Shown: positions 2,647-12,716, counted from the first letter of the stretch. The stretch: DNA of 52,925 nucleotides from a virus (IMGVR_UViG_3300041409_000458), one strand, 5' to 3'. Numbers and translations: made by a program. Notes: a model not told the origin generated them from the letters alone.

Positions 2647-2990
2647 TGAAAACTGCAAAATACTTAATTGTTATTGGTGTAATAATACAAATACTCACTA
2701 GTATGTTTTGGTTTCATATACCAAATATACAAATAGCTGAAATAGTAGAAGCATTAGGACAAATTGTAGGAGAGATATTATATTTTATAGCTTTTACGAG
2801 ATTATTTATAGAAGATAAAACCTTCAAGTATTTTCTTAGCTTTGTTAGAGATTTAATTATATTTGATATATTTGATATATTATTCTTAAATCCCTTTGAG
2901 ATAAGTACTCCAAAATATAGTAATTTTTATTTTGCAATAATTTTACTATTATATAAATTAATCAGAAAATTCTTAAAAAAAGAAGAATAA
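2646..2990 (+). CDS. Small multi-pass membrane protein
   Basis: About 4 hydrophobic segments and a basic C-terminus. TAATG coupling on both sides. Confidence 0.65.
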   Translation: MKTAKYLIVIGVIIQILTSMFWFHIPNIQIAEIVEALGQIVGEILYFIAFTRLFIEDKTFKYFLSFVRDLIIFDIFDILFLNPFEISTPKYSNFYFAIILLLYKLIRKFLKKEE

Positions 2991-3109
2991 TGGCTTGTGA
3001 AATAGTAATAAAACCGAAGGATGTACCTGTAAAACCTATTTACGTAGGAGCAGTAATGGAAAATTGCAGCTGTGATTCAACAACTACAACAACTACGGCT
3101 GCCCCATAA
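2990..3109 (+). CDS. 39-aa Cys/poly-Thr microprotein (not in ORF track)
   Basis: Translates to MACEIVIKPKDVPVKPIYVGAVMENCSCDSTTTTTTAAP. TAATG overlap with the upstream gene, and the same CxC...T(n)xAP ending as the next gene. Confidence 0.7.
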   Translation: MACEIVIKPKDVPVKPIYVGAVMENCSCDSTTTTTTAAP

Positions 3110-3119
3110 ATAATAATAT

Positions 3120-3521
3120 ATGAAAATAACTTGTAATAATTGTGAGGAATTAATGCAGAAATATCTATGTGATTTGCCTTCTGCGTGGTCAAAACAGATG
3201 GCTAAGGTTATCTGTAAGTTCATCAATCCTACTGTTCCTCTTGACTGTAATAGTGTTAAGAATTGTGAGACTTTAACCTCCTTATCCGCATTTACTGTGG
3301 ATGGAAGTGAGGTATGTATTACATACACTGATGAGAATGGTACAGCAGTTACTCGTTGTTTTGATATGAATGACGTAGGATTAGATTTGGACCCAAAATG
3401 TATAATGGACCAAGAAGATTGGGATTTGTTATCATGGAGAGACCAGATACAGGCAATTATTGACTATGCATGTACTTGTCAGCAGCACACTACAACCACA
3501 ACAACAACTATAGCTCCATAA
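3120..3521 (+). CDS. Cys-rich protein with C-terminal poly-Thr tail
   Basis: Paralogous to the N-terminal domain of the next gene (CETLTSLSAFTV vs CETVTSLSTFTV). Ends CTCQQHTTTTTTTIAP. Confidence 0.75.
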   Translation: MKITCNNCEELMQKYLCDLPSAWSKQMAKVICKFINPTVPLDCNSVKNCETLTSLSAFTVDGSEVCITYTDENGTAVTRCFDMNDVGLDLDPKCIMDQEDWDLLSWRDQIQAIIDYACTCQQHTTTTTTTIAP

Positions 3522-5200
3522 TGACTTATAATAATTGCGTAAAACAGGTAATAGAAGAATTAGATGCTCTCCCACAAGTGTGGGCAGAGAAGTTGGCATG
3601 TAATATATGCAGTTTGGTAGAAACTGAGGATGAATGTGCAACAACTTCGGACTGTCAGGATATCAGTGAGTGTGAGACAGTAACCTCATTAAGTACCTTT
3701 ACAGTAATTGATGACAAGATATGTATATCTTTCAAGGATGAAAGAGGAGTTACAGTAAAGCGTTGTTTTATAGCCTCTCAATTTACAGATGAGATAAACG
3801 AAACGGATGGTTTATGTATAGATTCGGATTGGAATACTTTCTCCTCAAAAGAGAAGTGGCAAGCAGTAATAGATAAAATCTGCAACTGCTGTAATCCAAC
3901 TACAACAACCACAACAACTTCTACCACAACAACTACCACAATACAAGAATGTCCTGATTGTTACACAATTAGATTCGTTAATCCGGATAATGAAGACCAT
4001 GATATTGATTATGTAAACTGTGATACCCTTAGTCCATCAAATATTACTCTTGGTGCAGGAGAAAGTGTAACTATTTGTGGATGTAGTGATAGTTTTGAGT
4101 ATGATAATGAAATTATAGCTGAGTTTATCAGTGACACTTGTAACGCTGAATCATGTGAGAGTTGCAATAAGTATACATTAATAAATAATTTAGATGAACC
4201 ACAGCAGATTCATTATATAGATTGTGCTACACAATTACCTGCATTTGTTTGGGTTCTTCCTAATGAAGAAACGATTATTGATTGTGCTTGTACTGATAGT
4301 GTTGTTATTCCAGACAGGAGTCCTGTTGAAATAATAGCTGTTGCTGACTGTGATGAAATAACTACTTCTACAACAACTACTACTACATTACCACCTTGTA
4401 GATGCTATAATGTTCAAAATCCGGGTGCTGTTGATAGGGTTCTTAATTACACAGATTGTGATGGTGATATACAACAGGAGGTTGTTCCTGCCGGAACAGG
4501 AGTACTCAGATGTGCTCCAAATGGTTTCATTAGTGGATTTGGATTAACTATCACAGACCTTGCTGCCTGTGCTGATATAGATGCTTGTAATAACGACCTT
4601 CTTACAACGACAACTACTACTACATCTACAACAACTACAACAACGGCAGCACCCACCACAACGACCACAACTACATCTACGACTACAATAACTACTGTTC
4701 CTATAGAGGAAGATATAGTATATTTCACCAATAGTCCTACAGTTGGAGATAGAGGTGCAATCGTATGGTTCTCAGCAAATGATTACTATACACCAAATAC
4801 TCCGGCTTCTTTAATACCAGCTAATTGCTTGAATATCAGTGATTTAGGACCTTCACCTGCTATTGAAATAGAGTTAAATTATTGGACAGATGATGATGAA
4901 GCTACAATTGATGATGGATTTGGAGACGTAAGAACACCTGATGGAACTAAGACAATTAATGTATCTACAGATTTATTAACATATAATGGAAGTAGTGGAG
5001 CTTGGCAGAGAGGAAATGGATTATTCACTTTACTTGAAGGAGCTAATATTGCAGCTTTTGAGATTACAAGTGTAACATCTGGTCTTACTTATAATGGAGT
5101 GAATCACCAGTTTAACTTACCACCAGCCAATCATTTTATAAGAGTTCATAATACATTCTCTGCAGGTGCAACAGGTGTAATATGGTTTGATTTAACATAA
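3521..5200 (+). CDS. Cys-rich, mucin-like poly-Thr repeat protein (probable virion decoration or fibre)
   Basis: Likely start is the ATG at 3521 (TAATG overlap; track start is 3470). Three poly-Thr tracts separate an N-terminal Cys domain, three ~60-70 aa Cys-containing repeats and a beta-rich C-terminal domain. Confidence 0.7.
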   Translation: MTYNNCVKQVIEELDALPQVWAEKLACNICSLVETEDECATTSDCQDISECETVTSLSTFTVIDDKICISFKDERGVTVKRCFIASQFTDEINETDGLCIDSDWNTFSSKEKWQAVIDKICNCCNPTTTTTTTSTTTTTTIQECPDCYTIRFVNPDNEDHDIDYVNCDTLSPSNITLGAGESVTICGCSDSFEYDNEIIAEFISDTCNAESCESCNKYTLINNLDEPQQIHYIDCATQLPAFVWVLPNEETIIDCACTDSVVIPDRSPVEIIAVADCDEITTSTTTTTTLPPCRCYNVQNPGAVDRVLNYTDCDGDIQQEVVPAGTGVLRCAPNGFISGFGLTITDLAACADIDACNNDLLTTTTTTTSTTTTTTAAPTTTTTTTSTTTITTVPIEEDIVYFTNSPTVGDRGAIVWFSANDYYTPNTPASLIPANCLNISDLGPSPAIEIELNYWTDDDEATIDDGFGDVRTPDGTKTINVSTDLLTYNGSSGAWQRGNGLFTLLEGANIAAFEITSVTSGLTYNGVNHQFNLPPANHFIRVHNTFSAGATGVIWFDLT

Positions 5201-5769
5201 TGATAGGGATATACAAAATAACAAGCCCTTCTGGTAAAGCCTATATTGGACAGTCTTGGAATATTCTTAAGAGGTTCATAGATTACAAATATTGTAATAA
5301 GGCACAGCGTTACATATATCATTCTTTGGCAAAACATGGGTATACAAATCATATATTTGAGATAGTTCATGAGCTTCCAGAGGACATAACACAGTCAATA
5401 CTAGATAGTTATGAACAATTGTATATTGATACACACAGGGATTGTGGGATAATTTTGATGAATATCAGAGAAGCTGGGACTGGAGGAAAACATAATGTTA
5501 GAACTAAGGAGTTAATGAGACTTGCATCATTAGGAAAACCTAAGTCGAAACAACATTGTATAAATAATGGTCTCGCAAAGAAGGGACAATATCCTAAATC
5601 AGCCAAGATAGTTGTTGACCTAATTACTAAGGAAATTTATCCTTCTGCTAGGGTTGCAGCTGACTCAATTGGAGTAACACATAGTACTCTAAAGAGTTAT
5701 TTAAATGGTACAAGAATAAATAAAACCAATTTACAATATGAACATAGCTATAACTTTGGTAGCAACTAA
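5200..5769 (+). CDS. GIY-YIG homing endonuclease (free-standing)
   Basis: GIYKITSPSGKAYIGQS motif, conserved E (SYEQLYI) and N (MNIREAG), C-terminal HTH/NUMOD1-like tail. Confidence 0.9.
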   Translation: MIGIYKITSPSGKAYIGQSWNILKRFIDYKYCNKAQRYIYHSLAKHGYTNHIFEIVHELPEDITQSILDSYEQLYIDTHRDCGIILMNIREAGTGGKHNVRTKELMRLASLGKPKSKQHCINNGLAKKGQYPKSAKIVVDLITKEIYPSARVAADSIGVTHSTLKSYLNGTRINKTNLQYEHSYNFGSN

Positions 5770-6499
5770 TGCTTACTTTATTCTTGGGTTGAGGTTTATG
5801 AAGAAGTTCATGAATCACTATAAGGGTAATAATACTATAACTTTTTATATATTTAGTGATGAAGACCCAAAACCATACCTTTCAGATAATATAAGGTTCA
5901 AGTATTTCTATAGAACTCATAAATGTTGGCAAGATGGAACAAATTCTAAATTTGCTAATATAATATCAATAGAGAAAGATTTAAAGGACGAAGATTATAT
6001 GTACCAATTCGATGCAGATACAAATATCACTAAAGATTTTACTGATGAATGGTTCCTTGGAGATTTGGTGGGTGGCGAACATTATGGAAACAGGAATTAT
6101 CTTAAAGATGGAGTAGGTTTTGACCACAATCCGAAAAGCAAAGCCTATGTTCCTTACTTCAGCAAGTTACCTTGTACTTACTATTATGGAGCATTCTTTG
6201 GAGGTAAGAAAGACAGAATGATAGATTTCTGCCAAACATTATATAATAATCAACTGGAAGATAAGAAGATACCTTATGAGCCAGTTGTTAATGATGAGAG
6301 TTACATTAATCAATATTTTCATTATAATCCTCCCACTTTAACAGTTCCTTGTGATAAGTTTGAATTTTTAGTTAGTGACAAAGGAGGAATAGGAGAAACC
6401 CGTAATACAAAATTAAATACGGATGAGTTCAGAAAACGCTTGCGTGAAAATACTAATAAGTTATTTGACATACAGCATAACAAGCTTATCTTTGTATAA
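5738..6499 (+). CDS. Glycosyltransferase family 6 (ABO / alpha-1,3-Gal-transferase-like)
   Basis: N-terminal IxLVATNAY, DxD motif (FDAD), YYYGAFFGG (human GTB YYMGAFFGG) and NDESYIN (human HDESHLN). Confidence 0.9.
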   Translation: MNIAITLVATNAYFILGLRFMKKFMNHYKGNNTITFYIFSDEDPKPYLSDNIRFKYFYRTHKCWQDGTNSKFANIISIEKDLKDEDYMYQFDADTNITKDFTDEWFLGDLVGGEHYGNRNYLKDGVGFDHNPKSKAYVPYFSKLPCTYYYGAFFGGKKDRMIDFCQTLYNNQLEDKKIPYEPVVNDESYINQYFHYNPPTLTVPCDKFEFLVSDKGGIGETRNTKLNTDEFRKRLRENTNKLFDIQHNKLIFV

Positions 6500-6510
6500 A
6501 ACCAACAAAC

Positions 6511-7455
6511 ATGATATATTTAAGTTGTCAGCCAGTGGATAGTTATTTCCTTTGGCAAGTAGAAGTACAGATTACAAATTTTCGTAAATTCGGAGTATCA
6601 GGAAAGATGCATATATTAGTTTGGTACCCTGAAAGAAGGGCTGCAGAACTGGAAGCATGGAGAGCTTTACAGGATAAATACCCGGAAACAAGATTCTTTT
6701 TTTATAAAGATGAAGGTGTTAATCTTGGATTATATATCTCTCAGCTTCGACCACATACTATAAAGAAGCATTTTGCAGCTATTCCGTCTCTCAAGAGAGA
6801 GACTATATTTTACCACGATAGTGATATAATATTCAATTATCTCCCTGATTTTGAGTCACTTTTGGACGATAATATCAATTGGCAATCAGATTGTTCAAGC
6901 TATCTTGATTACAATTACCTCAAGAGGAAAGAAAAGGAAGGTAATATTCCTGATGACGAAGCTGTAAAAATATTGGCTAATATCGGAAATATTCCGATAG
7001 AAGTCATTCAAAGTTACACAAATAAGACAGGTGGAGCTCAATGTATCCTCAAAGAAGTCGATTCAGCCTTCTGGTCCGATGTAGAAAGACAATGTATAGA
7101 GATAAGGAAAGCTTTCTGGTTTAATTCTCCTAACTCTATCAATAAAAAGTACTTTGAGAGTGAAAATAAGGGCTTTCAGAGCTGGTGTGCTGATATGTGG
7201 GCTCTTAACATGGCTTTGTGGAGTAGAGGAAAAATAACGAACGTAACACCACTTCTGGACTTCTCGTGGGCAACTTCAAGCATCGAAGAGTTTAATAAGA
7301 AGCCAATTTATCATAATGCCGGGGCAACCAAGGATAAATCTGAACTGTTCTATAAAGGAGATTGGATTCATAAATCTCCAATTGGTCAAGTTATTATCAC
7401 CAAACCTAACTCAGCATCCGAACAATATATCAAAGCTATACAAGAAGTAAAATAA
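6511..7455 (+). CDS. GT-A glycosyltransferase resembling plant peptide O-glycosyltransferases (HPAT/SGT1, GT95/GT96)
   Basis: Motifs in colinear order: SCQPVDSYFLWQ (cf. plant YFDWQ), YISQLRP (cf. INKP), FYHDSDIIF (DxD), GGAQ, WCADMWA (cf. WISEMY), IYHN. Confidence 0.65.
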   Translation: MIYLSCQPVDSYFLWQVEVQITNFRKFGVSGKMHILVWYPERRAAELEAWRALQDKYPETRFFFYKDEGVNLGLYISQLRPHTIKKHFAAIPSLKRETIFYHDSDIIFNYLPDFESLLDDNINWQSDCSSYLDYNYLKRKEKEGNIPDDEAVKILANIGNIPIEVIQSYTNKTGGAQCILKEVDSAFWSDVERQCIEIRKAFWFNSPNSINKKYFESENKGFQSWCADMWALNMALWSRGKITNVTPLLDFSWATSSIEEFNKKPIYHNAGATKDKSELFYKGDWIHKSPIGQVIITKPNSASEQYIKAIQEVK

Positions 7456-7502: not shown

Positions 7503-8147
7503 ATGGCACTATTAGATACATTAAAGACGACAGGTGAAGTATTAGGTAGCGTTATAGCGGTGGGAACCATTATTTGGAAAACCTTTGCTAAGAAGTGGTG
7601 GAATAGATACAGAGCTTCGCTACATGCTCGCTGGGACAAGTTAACTGCGGAGTTAGCTTCTCAGAATAGGGAAATTGCATCTATTAAGCACATGCTTTAT
7701 CCGAATGGTGGTAGTAGCATGTTTGATACCCAAAGAAAAATGTTATCTCAAGTAGAAAGTGTCATATTAAAATTAAATAGCTTACAAGTATCCAACAGAA
7801 ATACTTGGGATATTTTGGATATTGCTTCATGGGAATCTGATAGTGAAGGTAGAATTACTTATGTATCAATAGCTTTTTGTGATTTGATTGGTGCATCACC
7901 TTTAGAGGTAATGGGAAATTCATGGGTAGGAAGAGTTGCTTCATGGGACAGGGATATGGTTGTAAAACTATGGAGAGAATCAGTAGCAAATGGCTCCGAA
8001 TTCATATTAGTACATTCACTAAGAAGAAATGATGGTAAATATCAAATGGTACAGCCAATCGTTATACACAATAAAGATAAAGATGGTAAAGTTTTAAATA
8101 GTTTGGGTAGGCTTCTGAAAATTGGAGAACCTTATATACACGAATAA
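7503..8147 (+). CDS. Membrane-anchored PAS-domain protein in lysis cassette
   Basis: N-terminal hydrophobic helix followed by basic residues, a coiled coil, the PNGGSS motif, then a PAS signature (WESDSEGRITYVSIAFCDLIGASPLEVMGNSW ... RRNDGKY ... DKDGKV). Confidence 0.75.
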   Translation: MALLDTLKTTGEVLGSVIAVGTIIWKTFAKKWWNRYRASLHARWDKLTAELASQNREIASIKHMLYPNGGSSMFDTQRKMLSQVESVILKLNSLQVSNRNTWDILDIASWESDSEGRITYVSIAFCDLIGASPLEVMGNSWVGRVASWDRDMVVKLWRESVANGSEFILVHSLRRNDGKYQMVQPIVIHNKDKDGKVLNSLGRLLKIGEPYIHE

Positions 8148-8569
8148 TGAAGAGAATTTTTAAATATATAGAACCTTTATGGCAGGGTGCAGATGGTAAA
8201 ATATCTGTAAGGTCTGCTTTGGCTATAGCCTTCTCTATTGATTTTATTCATAATTTATCTCATGCCATCTTTAAATGGGATGGTGGTAGAACTCTTGAGG
8301 GTTTATCACTAGTTCTTGGTATTGAAGCTGGTCTAATAGTAGCTTTATTAGGTTTAACTACTTATCAGAACATGGCAGCTCAGAAGATTGACAGTCTTGC
8401 AGCAAATCCTACAGCTCCTGCCATCACAATTGAGAAGGTTGAGAACGTAAATACAGCTACAAATACAACTACAGCTAAAACTGTAAATGCTGCTCAAGTA
8501 GATACTGTTAATACAACAAACACAAATATTACATCAAAAGTACAAATCGACAATCCAGATGGTCAATAA
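8147..8569 (+). CDS. Putative holin
   Basis: Two predicted TM segments. Lies directly upstream of, and overlaps, the endolysin. Confidence 0.6.
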   Translation: MKRIFKYIEPLWQGADGKISVRSALAIAFSIDFIHNLSHAIFKWDGGRTLEGLSLVLGIEAGLIVALLGLTTYQNMAAQKIDSLAANPTAPAITIEKVENVNTATNTTTAKTVNAAQVDTVNTTNTNITSKVQIDNPDGQ

Positions 8570-9011
8570 AGCAACAGTAGACTTAATTAAGTCATTTGAG
8601 GGTCTGGTTCTGAAAGCCTATGTAGACCCCGGAACAGGTGGTGAACCAATAACAATTGGCTATGGAACCACTATATATAAAGGTATTCAGAAAGTTAAAC
8701 TGGGTGATAGTATCACTCCAGAGCAAGCTGAAATGTTCCTGACATACGATGTTAATACTTTCTCTGAAGGGGTAAAAAAGCTGATAACCAAGAACCTAAC
8801 GGAAAATCAATTTGGTGCTTTAGTATCTTTTGCTTATAATGTAGGTCTAGCAAACCTCAAAAACAGTACTTTACTTAAGAAAGTAAATGTTAATCCAAAT
8901 GACCCAGCTATTGCAACTGAGTTTGGAAAGTGGGTAAGAGCAGGTGGAAAGGTGATGAATGGATTAGTTAGGCGTAGAAATGCAGAATCAATGTTATACT
9001 TTAAAAAATAA
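8559..9011 (+). CDS. Endolysin, GH24 lysozyme
   Basis: FEGLVLKAYVDP...TIGYG catalytic E-x8-D-x5-T pattern; ALVSFAYNVG; GLVRRR. Confidence 0.93.
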   Translation: MVNKATVDLIKSFEGLVLKAYVDPGTGGEPITIGYGTTIYKGIQKVKLGDSITPEQAEMFLTYDVNTFSEGVKKLITKNLTENQFGALVSFAYNVGLANLKNSTLLKKVNVNPNDPAIATEFGKWVRAGGKVMNGLVRRRNAESMLYFKK

Positions 9012-11353: not shown

Positions 11354-11677
11354 TTATCTATTATCTCCGTCTCCTTTTTGAACTCCTCTCTCTTTACGAG
11401 AGCTTAATTTTGCTACATTGGCATCAACTACATCTTGTAGTGTGTATCCAAGGTCATCAGCTAATGATGTGAGGTACCAAAGAACATCTCCAGCTTCTTT
11501 TAAAAGCTCTACCTTGTCCAATTCCTTGTCACCACGTAGCCATTTTTTAACCTTTTCAGCTATTTCTCCACCCTCCCCTGTAATTCCAAGGGTAGGATAG
11601 ATGATAGCATGTTTCTCAGGATATACTTTCATCCCTTTTACAAACTCATTATATTCATTAAACTGCATCTGCTTCAA
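11354..11677 (-). CDS. mazG: MazG-like nucleotide pyrophosphohydrolase
   Basis: LGITGEGGEIAEKVKK...KEAGDVLWY (ExxE...ExxD), NVAKLSSR. Confidence 0.9.
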   Translation of the reverse strand: MKQMQFNEYNEFVKGMKVYPEKHAIIYPTLGITGEGGEIAEKVKKWLRGDKELDKVELLKEAGDVLWYLTSLADDLGYTLQDVVDANVAKLSSRKERGVQKGDGDNR

Positions 11678-12716
11678 TTTTTTCTTCTACAAGTACAATC
11701 TCCTGACCCATTTTGTCTTGGATATTGGCAGAGATTTTACTGTAAAATTCAGGATTATCAATAAGAAGTGATTTGAACTCAGATTCAGAATACTTCGTTC
11801 CCTCATAAGTGATGTAAGGAATTAACTTCTCTTTTCTCACCGTAAGCAAACCAAGGTCCTTTCCAAGGTCAACAACTTCCTGTAGTTTGTCAATACCAAC
11901 TCCATAGAGTACATTAAATTCAGCTTTTTTAAATGGTGCTGAAAGTTTGTTCTTTATCACCTTAGCAATCGTCTGATTACCAATTTTGATTTCTCCATTG
12001 AACACAGAGTTATCTTTTGATATTGAACGTGTTGTCTCAATACGAACGTGAGCATAGAATTTCAGTGCATTACCACCTTGAGTCGTATCTGGTGAACCAA
12101 ACATAACACCAATTTTCTGCCTAAGCTGACCAATAAACACAAATGTAGTTCCATGTTTCATGGATAGATAGTTGGCTTTCATTACAGCCTGACCAAGCAT
12201 ACGGGCATGTTTACCAATAGCTGAGTCACCAACTTCACCTTCCAGTACTGATTTTGGCTGCAGAGCATTGTAGCTATCATAGATAACCATATCAATCTCT
12301 CCAGTTTCAACCAGTTTATCAACCTTATTATAGGCTCCTTCTCCTGCAGTATCATCCATCTGAATAATATACAGGTCTTCCATATCAACTCCAAGAGCTT
12401 TGGCATAATCTCTATCCAGAGAGTTCTCAGCATCTACATAGATACATTTTAATCCTTTCTTTTGAGCATTACCTATGATTGTCTGACATAAGGTACTTTT
12501 ACCTGTTGATTCCCAGCCAATAATTTCATAGATTTTTCCGGTAACAACTCCACCAATACCAAGAGCATAGTTCAATCCTATCGAACCTGTGTCGATAATT
12601 GGACCTGATACTTGTACTGTGGGATTTTTACCATGAATTACGGTTCCTTTTCCGTAAGTCTTTTCGAGCTCAGCGATTGCTTGAGCTAATGTTTGCTGAC
12701 CTTTTTTCTCTGCCAT
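11658..12716 (-). CDS. recA: RecA recombinase
   Basis: Walker A (GWESTGKS), DAENSLD, FIGQLRQKIGVMFGSPDTTQGGNALKFYA, KNKLSAPFK. Confidence 0.97.
   Translation of the reverse strand: MAEKKGQQTLAQAIAELEKTYGKGTVIHGKNPTVQVSGPIIDTGSIGLNYALGIGGVVTGKIYEIIGWESTGKSTLCQTIIGNAQKKGLKCIYVDAENSLDRDYAKALGVDMEDLYIIQMDDTAGEGAYNKVDKLVETGEIDMVIYDSYNALQPKSVLEGEVGDSAIGKHARMLGQAVMKANYLSMKHGTTFVFIGQLRQKIGVMFGSPDTTQGGNALKFYAHVRIETTRSISKDNSVFNGEIKIGNQTIAKVIKNKLSAPFKKAEFNVLYGVGIDKLQEVVDLGKDLGLLTVRKEKLIPYITYEGTKYSESEFKSLLIDNPEFYSKISANIQDKMGQEIVLVEEKIEADAV

Follow-up and report, generated by a model that had tools for sequence, protein, structure and literature searches.

A candidate phage-encoded protein O-glycosylation module linking poly-threonine proteins with an HPAT/SGT1-like and a GT6-family glycosyltransferase

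The question raised by this locus is what two glycosyltransferase genes are doing in a phage genome close to three genes whose Cys-rich proteins contain long, nearly pure runs of threonine. The locus lies at positions 2990-7455 of a 52,925-nucleotide stretch of viral DNA (hereafter the window), which corresponds, on the reverse strand, to positions 24211-77135 of the 146.7-kb IMG/VR virus record IMGVR_UViG_3300041409_000458. For the window DNA, the one sequencing run listed is from a soil metagenome and may be the source sample itself; no run of RNA is listed. The answer that we consider probable is that these genes form a phage-encoded module for protein O-glycosylation in the cytoplasm, with the poly-threonine (poly-Thr) runs as acceptor, a 314-residue enzyme acting first and a GT6-family enzyme acting after it. 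This is in essence the interpretation given in the original prediction, which had been made from the sequence of the window, and it is supported by the analysis described here. The 314-residue enzyme, a DxD-containing GT-A glycosyltransferase assigned to phrog_4417, is referred to by the working name GT-314. The genes at the centre of the proposal are the following.

2990..3109, + strand: 39-residue Cys-containing peptide, candidate acceptor (open reading frame (ORF) call; kept in relatives)
3120..3521, + strand: 133-residue Cys-rich protein, candidate acceptor (BLASTP paralogy; orthologue in locus L004)
3521..5200, + strand: 559-residue Cys-rich multidomain protein, candidate acceptor (seven full-length homologues)
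5738..6499, + strand: GT6-family glycosyltransferase of 253 residues, proposed glycan extender (PF03414, E 6.7e-16)
6511..7455, + strand: GT-314, HPAT/SGT1-like, proposed initiator of poly-Thr O-glycosylation (phrog_4417, E 2.7e-53)

The evidence that carries this reading is the genomic linkage between GT-314 and poly-Thr runs, a run here meaning 6 or more serine or threonine residues, of which 5 or more are threonine, inside an ORF. The linkage was surveyed in 80 IMG/VR loci with GT-314 (35-83% identity; 40 clusters at 90% and 18 at 70% identity), using a profile built from a 21-sequence alignment and restricting the loci to genes carrying two exact peptide motifs. Over the first kb upstream of GT-314 the density of poly-Thr is 4.2 runs/kb; it is 1.8 in the next kb and drops to ~0.02/kb at distances of at least 5 kb. 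Nearly all of the runs lie on the strand of the glycosyltransferase gene. A run within 3 kb is present at 74 of the 80 loci and in 15 of the 18 clusters at 70% identity (binomial p ~4e-12 relative to the distal background). The original prediction had turned to related genomes with the question of whether the glycosyltransferase and poly-Thr genes occur independently of each other, and the survey speaks strongly for linkage. The carriers vary by lineage: some are small (50-90 residues) with poly-Thr at the C-terminus, some are Cys-rich with several domains, and others are very long and fibre-like. Carriers here and in the cultured phages described below are unrelated proteins, and the cultured phages come from hosts of two phyla. 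What GT-314 is associated with is therefore poly-Thr as such and not one protein family, and we read this association as the signature of a putative enzyme-substrate pair. Loci L003, L004/L005 and L010 keep the order seen in the window (small peptide, N-domain protein, large protein, GT6, GT-314), and in the more distant L006 two Cys-rich proteins with poly-Thr and one protein of 1509 residues are encoded upstream of GT6 and GT-314, and a 285-residue protein with ~10 mucin-like Thr repeats directly downstream. We found no paper in the literature that links poly-Thr tags with the GT-314 family.

These distributions bear directly on the possibility that both glycosyltransferases modify glycans of the host envelope, for superinfection exclusion or progeny release, and that the poly-Thr runs are unmodified flexible linkers. 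Such a role has precedent in the well-known phage glycosyltransferases that alter host serotype (as cited in PMC12619734), and poly-Thr linkers are widespread without GT-314. It is nevertheless very unlikely here, as it would leave unexplained both the ~200-fold local enrichment of poly-Thr by GT-314, which extends across unrelated carriers and host phyla, and the finding described below that poly-Thr tracks GT-314 rather than GT6. A simple hydropathy scan of the enzymes and the candidate acceptors also gave no clear transmembrane or signal-like segment; the one stretch that comes close to the usual threshold, at the N-terminus of GT6, aligns with residue 1 of the chain of the Bacteroides enzyme BoGT6a. 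Nothing in these sequences suggests export of the enzymes or the acceptors, and a cytoplasmic reaction on the phage's own proteins remains the reading that we prefer.

The same pairing of glycosyltransferase and poly-Thr is present in all six of the cultured phages examined, whose hosts are Chryseobacterium, Lactobacillus (two phages), Clostridium, Enterococcus and Staphylococcus; homologues of GT-314 occur in 77 cultured-phage records. Chryseobacterium phage MA9V-3 has a glycosyltransferase that is 33% identical and is preceded by two genes with long Thr/Ser runs, and Lactobacillus myophage Lpa804 has two poly-Thr ORFs immediately before the enzyme. Lactobacillus phage iLp84 has major capsid and major tail proteins that both end in T7-SK, and its small head protein gp8, with five Thr runs, is followed by the glycosyltransferase gp9, which lies between gp8 and the head-tail connector. 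The gp18 of Clostridium phage phiCTP1, in the position of the tail tube, ends in two Thr runs and precedes the glycosyltransferase gp19. The major tail protein of Enterococcus phage VPE25 ends in a T10 run, with a poly-Thr ORF immediately before the glycosyltransferase, and that of Staphylococcus phage RQ1 ends in T7-P, with an overlapping ORF of six Thr runs preceding the enzyme. The runs in these cultured relatives are thus often tails on capsid and tail-tube proteins, and the glycosyltransferase lies inside the head/tail module in iLp84, phiCTP1, VPE25 and RQ1.

Two side observations were made on these genomes. The second ORF of RQ1 (L209:6229-6931) starts inside the major tail gene and looks like a frameshift-extended tail protein with a mucin-like appendage. 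The poly-Thr ORFs upstream of the glycosyltransferase are unannotated in GenBank in VPE25 (L007:7750-8000) and in Lpa804 (L210:6500-7000).

The position of these homologues is also relevant to whether the enzymes might glycosylate phage DNA, by acting on hydroxymethyl- or hydroxy-pyrimidines as a protection against restriction, which is the commonest textbook role of phage glycosyltransferases (PMC13326640; PMC12619734). For the present locus we regard this as extremely improbable. No ThyA-family pyrimidine hydroxymethylase or hydroxylase was found in the 146.7-kb record, which is ~76% complete, and the glycosyltransferase genes of the window stand in a late fibre/lysis block, away from the replication genes on the opposite strand. 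A DNA substrate would further leave unexplained the linkage to poly-Thr, and the siphophage homologues of GT-314 sit inside the head/tail module.

A substrate among the virion proteins has a closer precedent. The mycobacteriophages Che8, Corndog and Myrna use their own glycosyltransferases to modify the C-terminal ends of capsid and tail-tube subunits (Freeman et al. 2023, Cell Host Microbe 31:1216, as cited in PMC12619734 and PMC12363180). Capsid and tail proteins of the cultured relatives carry poly-Thr tails that appear to follow the same logic, and as in the mycobacteriophages the glycosyltransferase genes lie within the late/structural block, both in the window and in iLp84, phiCTP1, VPE25 and RQ1. 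The module of the window is most likely a counterpart of mycobacteriophage virion glycosylation. The differences are that here we are dealing with a soil phage and with relatives infecting Bacteroidota and Firmicutes, that the acceptor feature would be a near-pure poly-Thr run, that in the window such runs also serve as linkers inside Cys-rich proteins other than capsid proteins, and that a GT6 enzyme is present as partner; moreover, the mycobacteriophage system was demonstrated by experiment, and the present one is predicted from its genes. To our knowledge, self-glycosylation of the phage particle has been shown in mycobacteriophages only, where it blunts antibody recognition. A more distant parallel is given by chlorovirus PBCV-1 and the giant viruses, in which self-encoded cytoplasmic glycosyltransferases build glycans on the viruses' own structural proteins, independently of the secretory glycosylation of the host. 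The likeness consists in virus-encoded glycosyltransferases that serve the virus's own proteins, but those glycans are atypical and N-linked, the host is eukaryotic, poly-Thr tags are absent and the enzymes involved are others.

It is important to consider what kind of enzyme GT-314 is. It matches phrog_4417, a family whose function is unannotated, from end to end (residues 1-314 on profile positions 1-292 of 293), and has no Pfam match at E 0.1 or better and none in NCBIfam. An AlphaFold2 model built from a 68-sequence alignment consists of a GT-A domain with a predicted local distance difference test score (pLDDT) of 97.8, and the D103-x-D105 motif is invariant across the 68 homologues, so that GT-314 can be taken with confidence to be a GT-A enzyme as modelled. 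When the model was compared with Swiss-Prot models by Foldseek, ranks 1-8 were occupied by SGT1, the Arabidopsis peptidyl-serine alpha-galactosyltransferase, and seven HPAT/RDN entries, which are hydroxyproline O-arabinosyltransferases, with template modelling (TM) scores of 0.59-0.64 and E ~1e-9 along the full length of the protein, whereas GT8 enzymes (lipopolysaccharide transferases) and glycogenin reached a TM score of 0.47-0.50 only. In the AFDB clusters, HPAT-like entries are preceded only by the family of GT-314 itself and by a single generic entry for a nucleotide-diphospho-sugar transferase. The Pfam family HPAT (PF23452) is matched weakly by 2 of the 68 homologues (best E 1.8e-4) and not by the query itself, and a sequence search of solved structures returned matches at chance level only. 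The resemblance of this enzyme to HPAT and SGT1 that had been read from the sequence is therefore borne out as a resemblance by the fold search and the weak Pfam matches; membership of GT-314 in GT95 or GT96 cannot be demonstrated, and phrog_4417 is best kept as a family of its own.

SGT1 (GT96), known from plants and algae, and HPAT/RDN (GT95) are likewise DxD GT-A enzymes and start O-glycans on repetitive peptides rich in hydroxy amino acids, the extensins, which parallels the association of GT-314 with poly-Thr. The acceptor is serine or hydroxyproline in plants and is presumed to be threonine for GT-314, the identity is 13-17%, and GT-314 has no hydrophobic segment, unlike the plant enzymes, which are Golgi membrane proteins. 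We propose GT-314, on the indirect evidence of its poly-Thr neighbourhood, as the predicted initiator that would place the first sugar on poly-Thr. Its family also includes fusions with methyltransferase, GT2-like or Glyco_transf_7C domains, as is expected for enzymes that build glycans. A prediction of the complex between GT-314 and the 39-residue peptide gave a score of 0.01, which counts neither way.

The identity of the second enzyme is more direct. The 253-residue protein matches PF03414 with 58.4 bits against a cut-off of 25, and the same family is found on 120 of 120 homologues among the matches listed. Against the NCBIfam model NF041524 ("family 6 glucosyltransferase") it scores 93.4 bits (E 1.5e-26), below the cut-off of 250, meaning that it is related to that group and not a member of it. 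It aligns over ~200 residues with the human ABO transferases (2e-13) and with BoGT6a (4e-12); its "DAD" aligns with the human DVD, its "NDES" with the "HDES" that holds the catalytic Glu, and D92, D94 and E187 are invariant in 15 homologues. The assignment to GT6 made in the original prediction thus holds. As a relative of human ABO A and B, bovine alpha-1,3-galactosyltransferase and Bacteroides ovatus BoGT6a, the window enzyme retains the DxD motif and the catalytic-Glu region, and like the bacterial members it is short and soluble; it differs from BoGT6a, which was deposited as "metal-independent", in keeping a DxD as the vertebrate enzymes do. The positions that select the donor are Tyr and Ala, residues that do not settle the donor, those of the ABO enzymes being Leu and Gly for A and Met and Ala for B.

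The relation between the two enzymes was examined from the side of GT6 in 62 IMG/VR loci carrying the window's GT6 subfamily. GT-314 is present in 34 of these, and in 26 of the 34 the two genes are immediate neighbours on one strand, in both gene orders. Poly-Thr accompanies GT6 in 27 of the 34 loci with GT-314 vs. 2 of the 28 loci with GT6 only (Fisher p 5e-9; after dereplication, 9e-7 at 95% and 4e-4 at 80% identity). It is clear that poly-Thr follows GT-314, and that GT6 is a frequent but dispensable partner. On a 596,785-base contig (L267:9053-10744), a single ORF of ~563 residues fuses GT-314 (HDSD, WCADMWA) with a complete GT6 (DAD, GGEH, NDES). We know of no GT6 enzyme described so far as paired with or fused to a peptide-type glycosyltransferase.

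An additional protein of ~240 residues adjoins GT-314 in 14 of the 80 loci of the first survey (for example L015:9195-9917, L012:9273-10004, L017:8747-9478, L079:6079-6834 and L013:8693-9412). It has no family in a Pfam scan and is GT2-like by motifs alone (an N-terminal "ITAT..R" and "DDDD"), and is probably an alternative second glycosyltransferase; the genome studied here has no homologue of it and has GT6 in its place. The presence of either GT6 or the GT2-like protein beside GT-314 fits one conserved initiator with lineage-specific extenders. This supports the idea of priming followed by capping, the order of action not being proven by it.

The partnership data also allow the independent action of GT6 to be judged. 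GT-314 could act on the poly-Thr proteins while GT6 acts elsewhere, on host lipopolysaccharide, capsule or another phage glycan, and is a mere neighbour. That GT6 can work alone is indicated by the 28 of 62 loci without GT-314, nearly all of which are also without poly-Thr; GT6 is found in only 3 of the 80 loci of the pattern-limited GT-314 sample, and the characterised bacterial GT6 enzymes use oligosaccharide acceptors in O-antigen-type glycans. Set against this are the adjacency on one strand in both gene orders, the fused ORF, and the replacement of GT6 by the GT2-like gene in 14 of the 80 loci, which fits a core enzyme with a variable extender, and we consider it quite unlikely that GT6 is unconnected with the glycan begun by GT-314.

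We then consider the candidate acceptors themselves. The original prediction had described three consecutive, closely coupled genes for Cys-rich proteins with five poly-Thr tracts. The arrangement of the genes is confirmed by the ORF calls and by the way they abut, with TAATG overlaps at 2990 (with the upstream gene), 3521 and 5200 and a 10-nucleotide gap at 3109/3120, and the tracts are present, but their number is six and becomes five only if the last two, separated by no more than "AAP", are merged. The 39-residue protein has 3 Cys and a single S-T6 run at residues 30-36, followed by AAP; the 133-residue protein has 11 Cys and a T7 run at residues 124-130, ending in T7-IAP. The 559-residue protein has 31 Cys and four runs located between domains, at residues 127-140 (T7-S-T6; nucleotides 3899-3940), 281-289 (TTS-T6; 4361-4387), 362-375 (T7-S-T6; 4604-4645) and 379-389 (T7-S-T3; 4655-4687). 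The Thr codons in the runs are mixed (ACA 28, ACT 18, ACC 6, ACG 5), which means that the runs are kept at the protein level, and a DNA slippage repeat or artefact was ruled out on this basis. Across the whole 146.7-kb record, poly-Thr runs are confined to five ORFs of at least 60 residues with 9 runs, 5 of them in the 133- and 559-residue proteins, and the 39-residue gene, below the 60-residue cut-off of that scan, adds a sixth run to the cluster. This clustering is more than chance.

The runs are also conserved. The position of the 39-residue gene is kept in L003 (40 residues) and L004 (39 residues), with a conserved core "VGA..ENCSC" and T6 tail, and the L004 orthologue of the 133-residue protein retains the C-terminal poly-Thr tail. 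Seven full-length homologues of the 559-residue protein, at 53-72% identity, have every run in place in the alignment, at nearly the same length. The 133-residue protein and the N-terminal part of the 559-residue protein are paralogous (36% identity over 125 residues, E 3e-20 by BLASTP). The AlphaFold2 model of the latter has a pLDDT of 57.9 overall, with three middle beta domains at 75-85 and the poly-Thr runs disordered at ~30, so that the runs separate small beta domains in the model. This protein has no Pfam or PHROG family; the fold search found nothing above Z 4.8 in VIA-align against 48,161 chains, where the weak matches were beta-sandwiches, and no usable match in Atlas. Among cultured phages, neither a megablast search with the region nor a tblastn search with the 559-residue protein gave a match.

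Two more poly-Thr-tailed proteins are encoded elsewhere in the genome, of 256 and 80 residues and both with double tails (G000 125757-126527 and 129467-129709; L090:7758-8528 (-) and 11468-11710 (-)). They stand among ~400-residue Cys-rich paralogues without known family and adjoin a 754-residue protein with a baseplate/tail-fibre PHROG match; since their neighbours match baseplate, fibre and virion-protein PHROGs, a structural role is favoured. None of the poly-Thr carriers of this genome, that is the three Cys-rich proteins and the two of the tail/baseplate region, is an identified capsid or tube protein.

It is at this point that one has to ask whether the acceptors belong to the virion at all. 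The poly-Thr proteins could be glycosylated by GT-314, with or without GT6, and yet be soluble or released late products, such as glycopeptides or adhesin-like proteins freed at lysis, with the 39-residue product as a glycocin-like peptide. The three proteins have no match to a virion family, the fold matches of the 559-residue protein are weak (Z<5), and the 39-residue product is small, contains Cys and is loosely similar to glycocins. We judge this unlikely, since carriers in the cultured relatives are annotated as capsid and tail proteins, the cluster lies between fibre-like and lysis genes, and the 133- and 559-residue proteins share an N-terminal domain in the manner that might be expected of virion-anchoring fibre domains. 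The scanned neighbours, from which a 60-residue ORF at 2464-2646 was left out, gave no match to a SunS-type GT2, a leader peptidase or an ATP-binding cassette (ABC) exporter. A glycocin-type ribosomally synthesised and post-translationally modified peptide (of the sublancin/glycocin F kind) was rejected as an identity for the 39-residue peptide on the same scan, with neither GT2, ABC nor peptidase match, and for want of a recognisable leader. The feature conserved throughout its family is the poly-Thr tail.

The reaction that we favour would run as follows. Late in infection and in the cytoplasm, soluble GT-314 would use a nucleotide-sugar donor to place a first sugar on threonines within the disordered runs, its acceptors being the three co-transcribed Cys-rich proteins and probably also the two poly-Thr-tailed proteins of the tail/baseplate region. 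GT6 would then add a second hexose or N-acetylhexosamine (galactose, N-acetylgalactosamine or glucose-type), probably alpha-linked by analogy with its family. The products would be stiffened, protease-resistant and hydrophilic mucin-like spacers or tails on late, fibre-like and probably virion-associated proteins. The roles proposed for such a glycan coat are shielding, adsorption and mimicry.

Several observations weigh against this account. The case is built from sequence and predicted structure. The likeness of GT-314 to SGT1 and HPAT is moderate, with a TM score of ~0.6 and 13-17% identity, and the three Cys-rich proteins of the window have no match to a known virion protein family in family scans or, for the 559-residue protein, in the fold search. 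The linkage itself has exceptions: 6 of the 80 GT-314 loci have no run within 3 kb (four of them none in the fetched flank), 7 of the 34 loci with both GT-314 and GT6 have no poly-Thr in the fetched flank, and of 63 randomly sampled viral loci that have Thr runs of at least 7, just 4 have GT-314 in the fetched flank, so poly-Thr also occurs without GT-314, for example as a plain linker or as a substrate of other glycosyltransferases. The IMG/VR samples were drawn with two exact peptide patterns and include near-duplicates, and the frequencies derived from them are indicative only.

A more general proposal, which we put forward as plausible and hold tentatively, is that poly-Thr is a portable glycosylation tag read by soluble phrog_4417 glycosyltransferases, distant kin of HPAT and SGT1, and used by phages of Bacteroidota and Firmicutes and by some very large viruses to coat capsid, tail and fibre with glycans of the mucin type. 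In the lineage of the window, GT6 (sometimes fused) would cap the glycan with an alpha-linked sugar of the galactose or N-acetylgalactosamine type, giving blood-group-like epitopes on the virion. What sets the window apart is its lineage of soil phage, its multidomain Cys-rich acceptors in which poly-Thr forms internal linkers, the 39-residue peptide kept in relatives, and the partnership with GT6 together with its natural fusion. If the module works as proposed, virion glycosylation would be widespread among phages that infect soil, gut and dairy bacteria, and would rely on another enzyme family and on an acceptor tag of a very simple kind. It would affect the adhesion of phages to mucus, capsules and hosts and the immune recognition of therapeutic phages, for instance relatives infecting Enterococcus and Staphylococcus, and would bear on how the structural proteomics and cryo-electron microscopy of such phages are read. 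A soluble enzyme with a poly-Thr tag could also be a compact tool for cytoplasmic glycoengineering, and the kinship to plant HPAT/SGT1, together with the pairing with an ABO-family GT6, raises questions on the origin and spread of enzyme families associated with eukaryotes.

The remaining features of the neighbourhood that have been referred to are listed here.

891-2276: tail-fibre-like protein(s), upstream of the cluster (match to several tail-fibre PHROGs)
5200..5769, + strand: GIY-YIG/NUMOD homing endonuclease (PF01541, E 3.2e-6; phrog_314, E 1.2e-17)
8559-9011, downstream of the glycosyltransferase genes: phage lysozyme (PF00959, 2.7e-40)

The gene order on the + strand runs from the tail-fibre-like genes through the 39-, 133- and 559-residue genes to the GIY-YIG gene, GT6 and GT-314. 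The cluster had been placed in the late/structural block from the outset, which agrees with the tail-fibre PHROG matches upstream and the lysozyme downstream. The GIY-YIG gene, whose 3' end overlaps the start of GT6 by 32 nucleotides, had likewise been singled out as an insertion, and this too is upheld by the Pfam and PHROG matches and by its absence from between the orthologous genes in L003, L004, L006 and L010. Because the relatives lack it, we regard it as a mobile insertion, and it was rejected as a part of the glycosylation system.

Two minor observations concern genes that flank the cluster or its counterparts. In relatives, small conserved ORFs of 39-46 residues with an "ELIDYL" start and paired Cys lie between fibre genes (L004:5248-5388 and 6643-6762; L003:7201-7338). 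In the window, a 214-residue PAS protein (7503-8147, + strand; PAS_3, 1.3e-7) with a moderately hydrophobic N-terminal stretch is encoded between the glycosyltransferase genes and a putative holin-like gene, which follows it together with the lysozyme gene; a sensor (PAS) domain in a lysis cassette is unusual.

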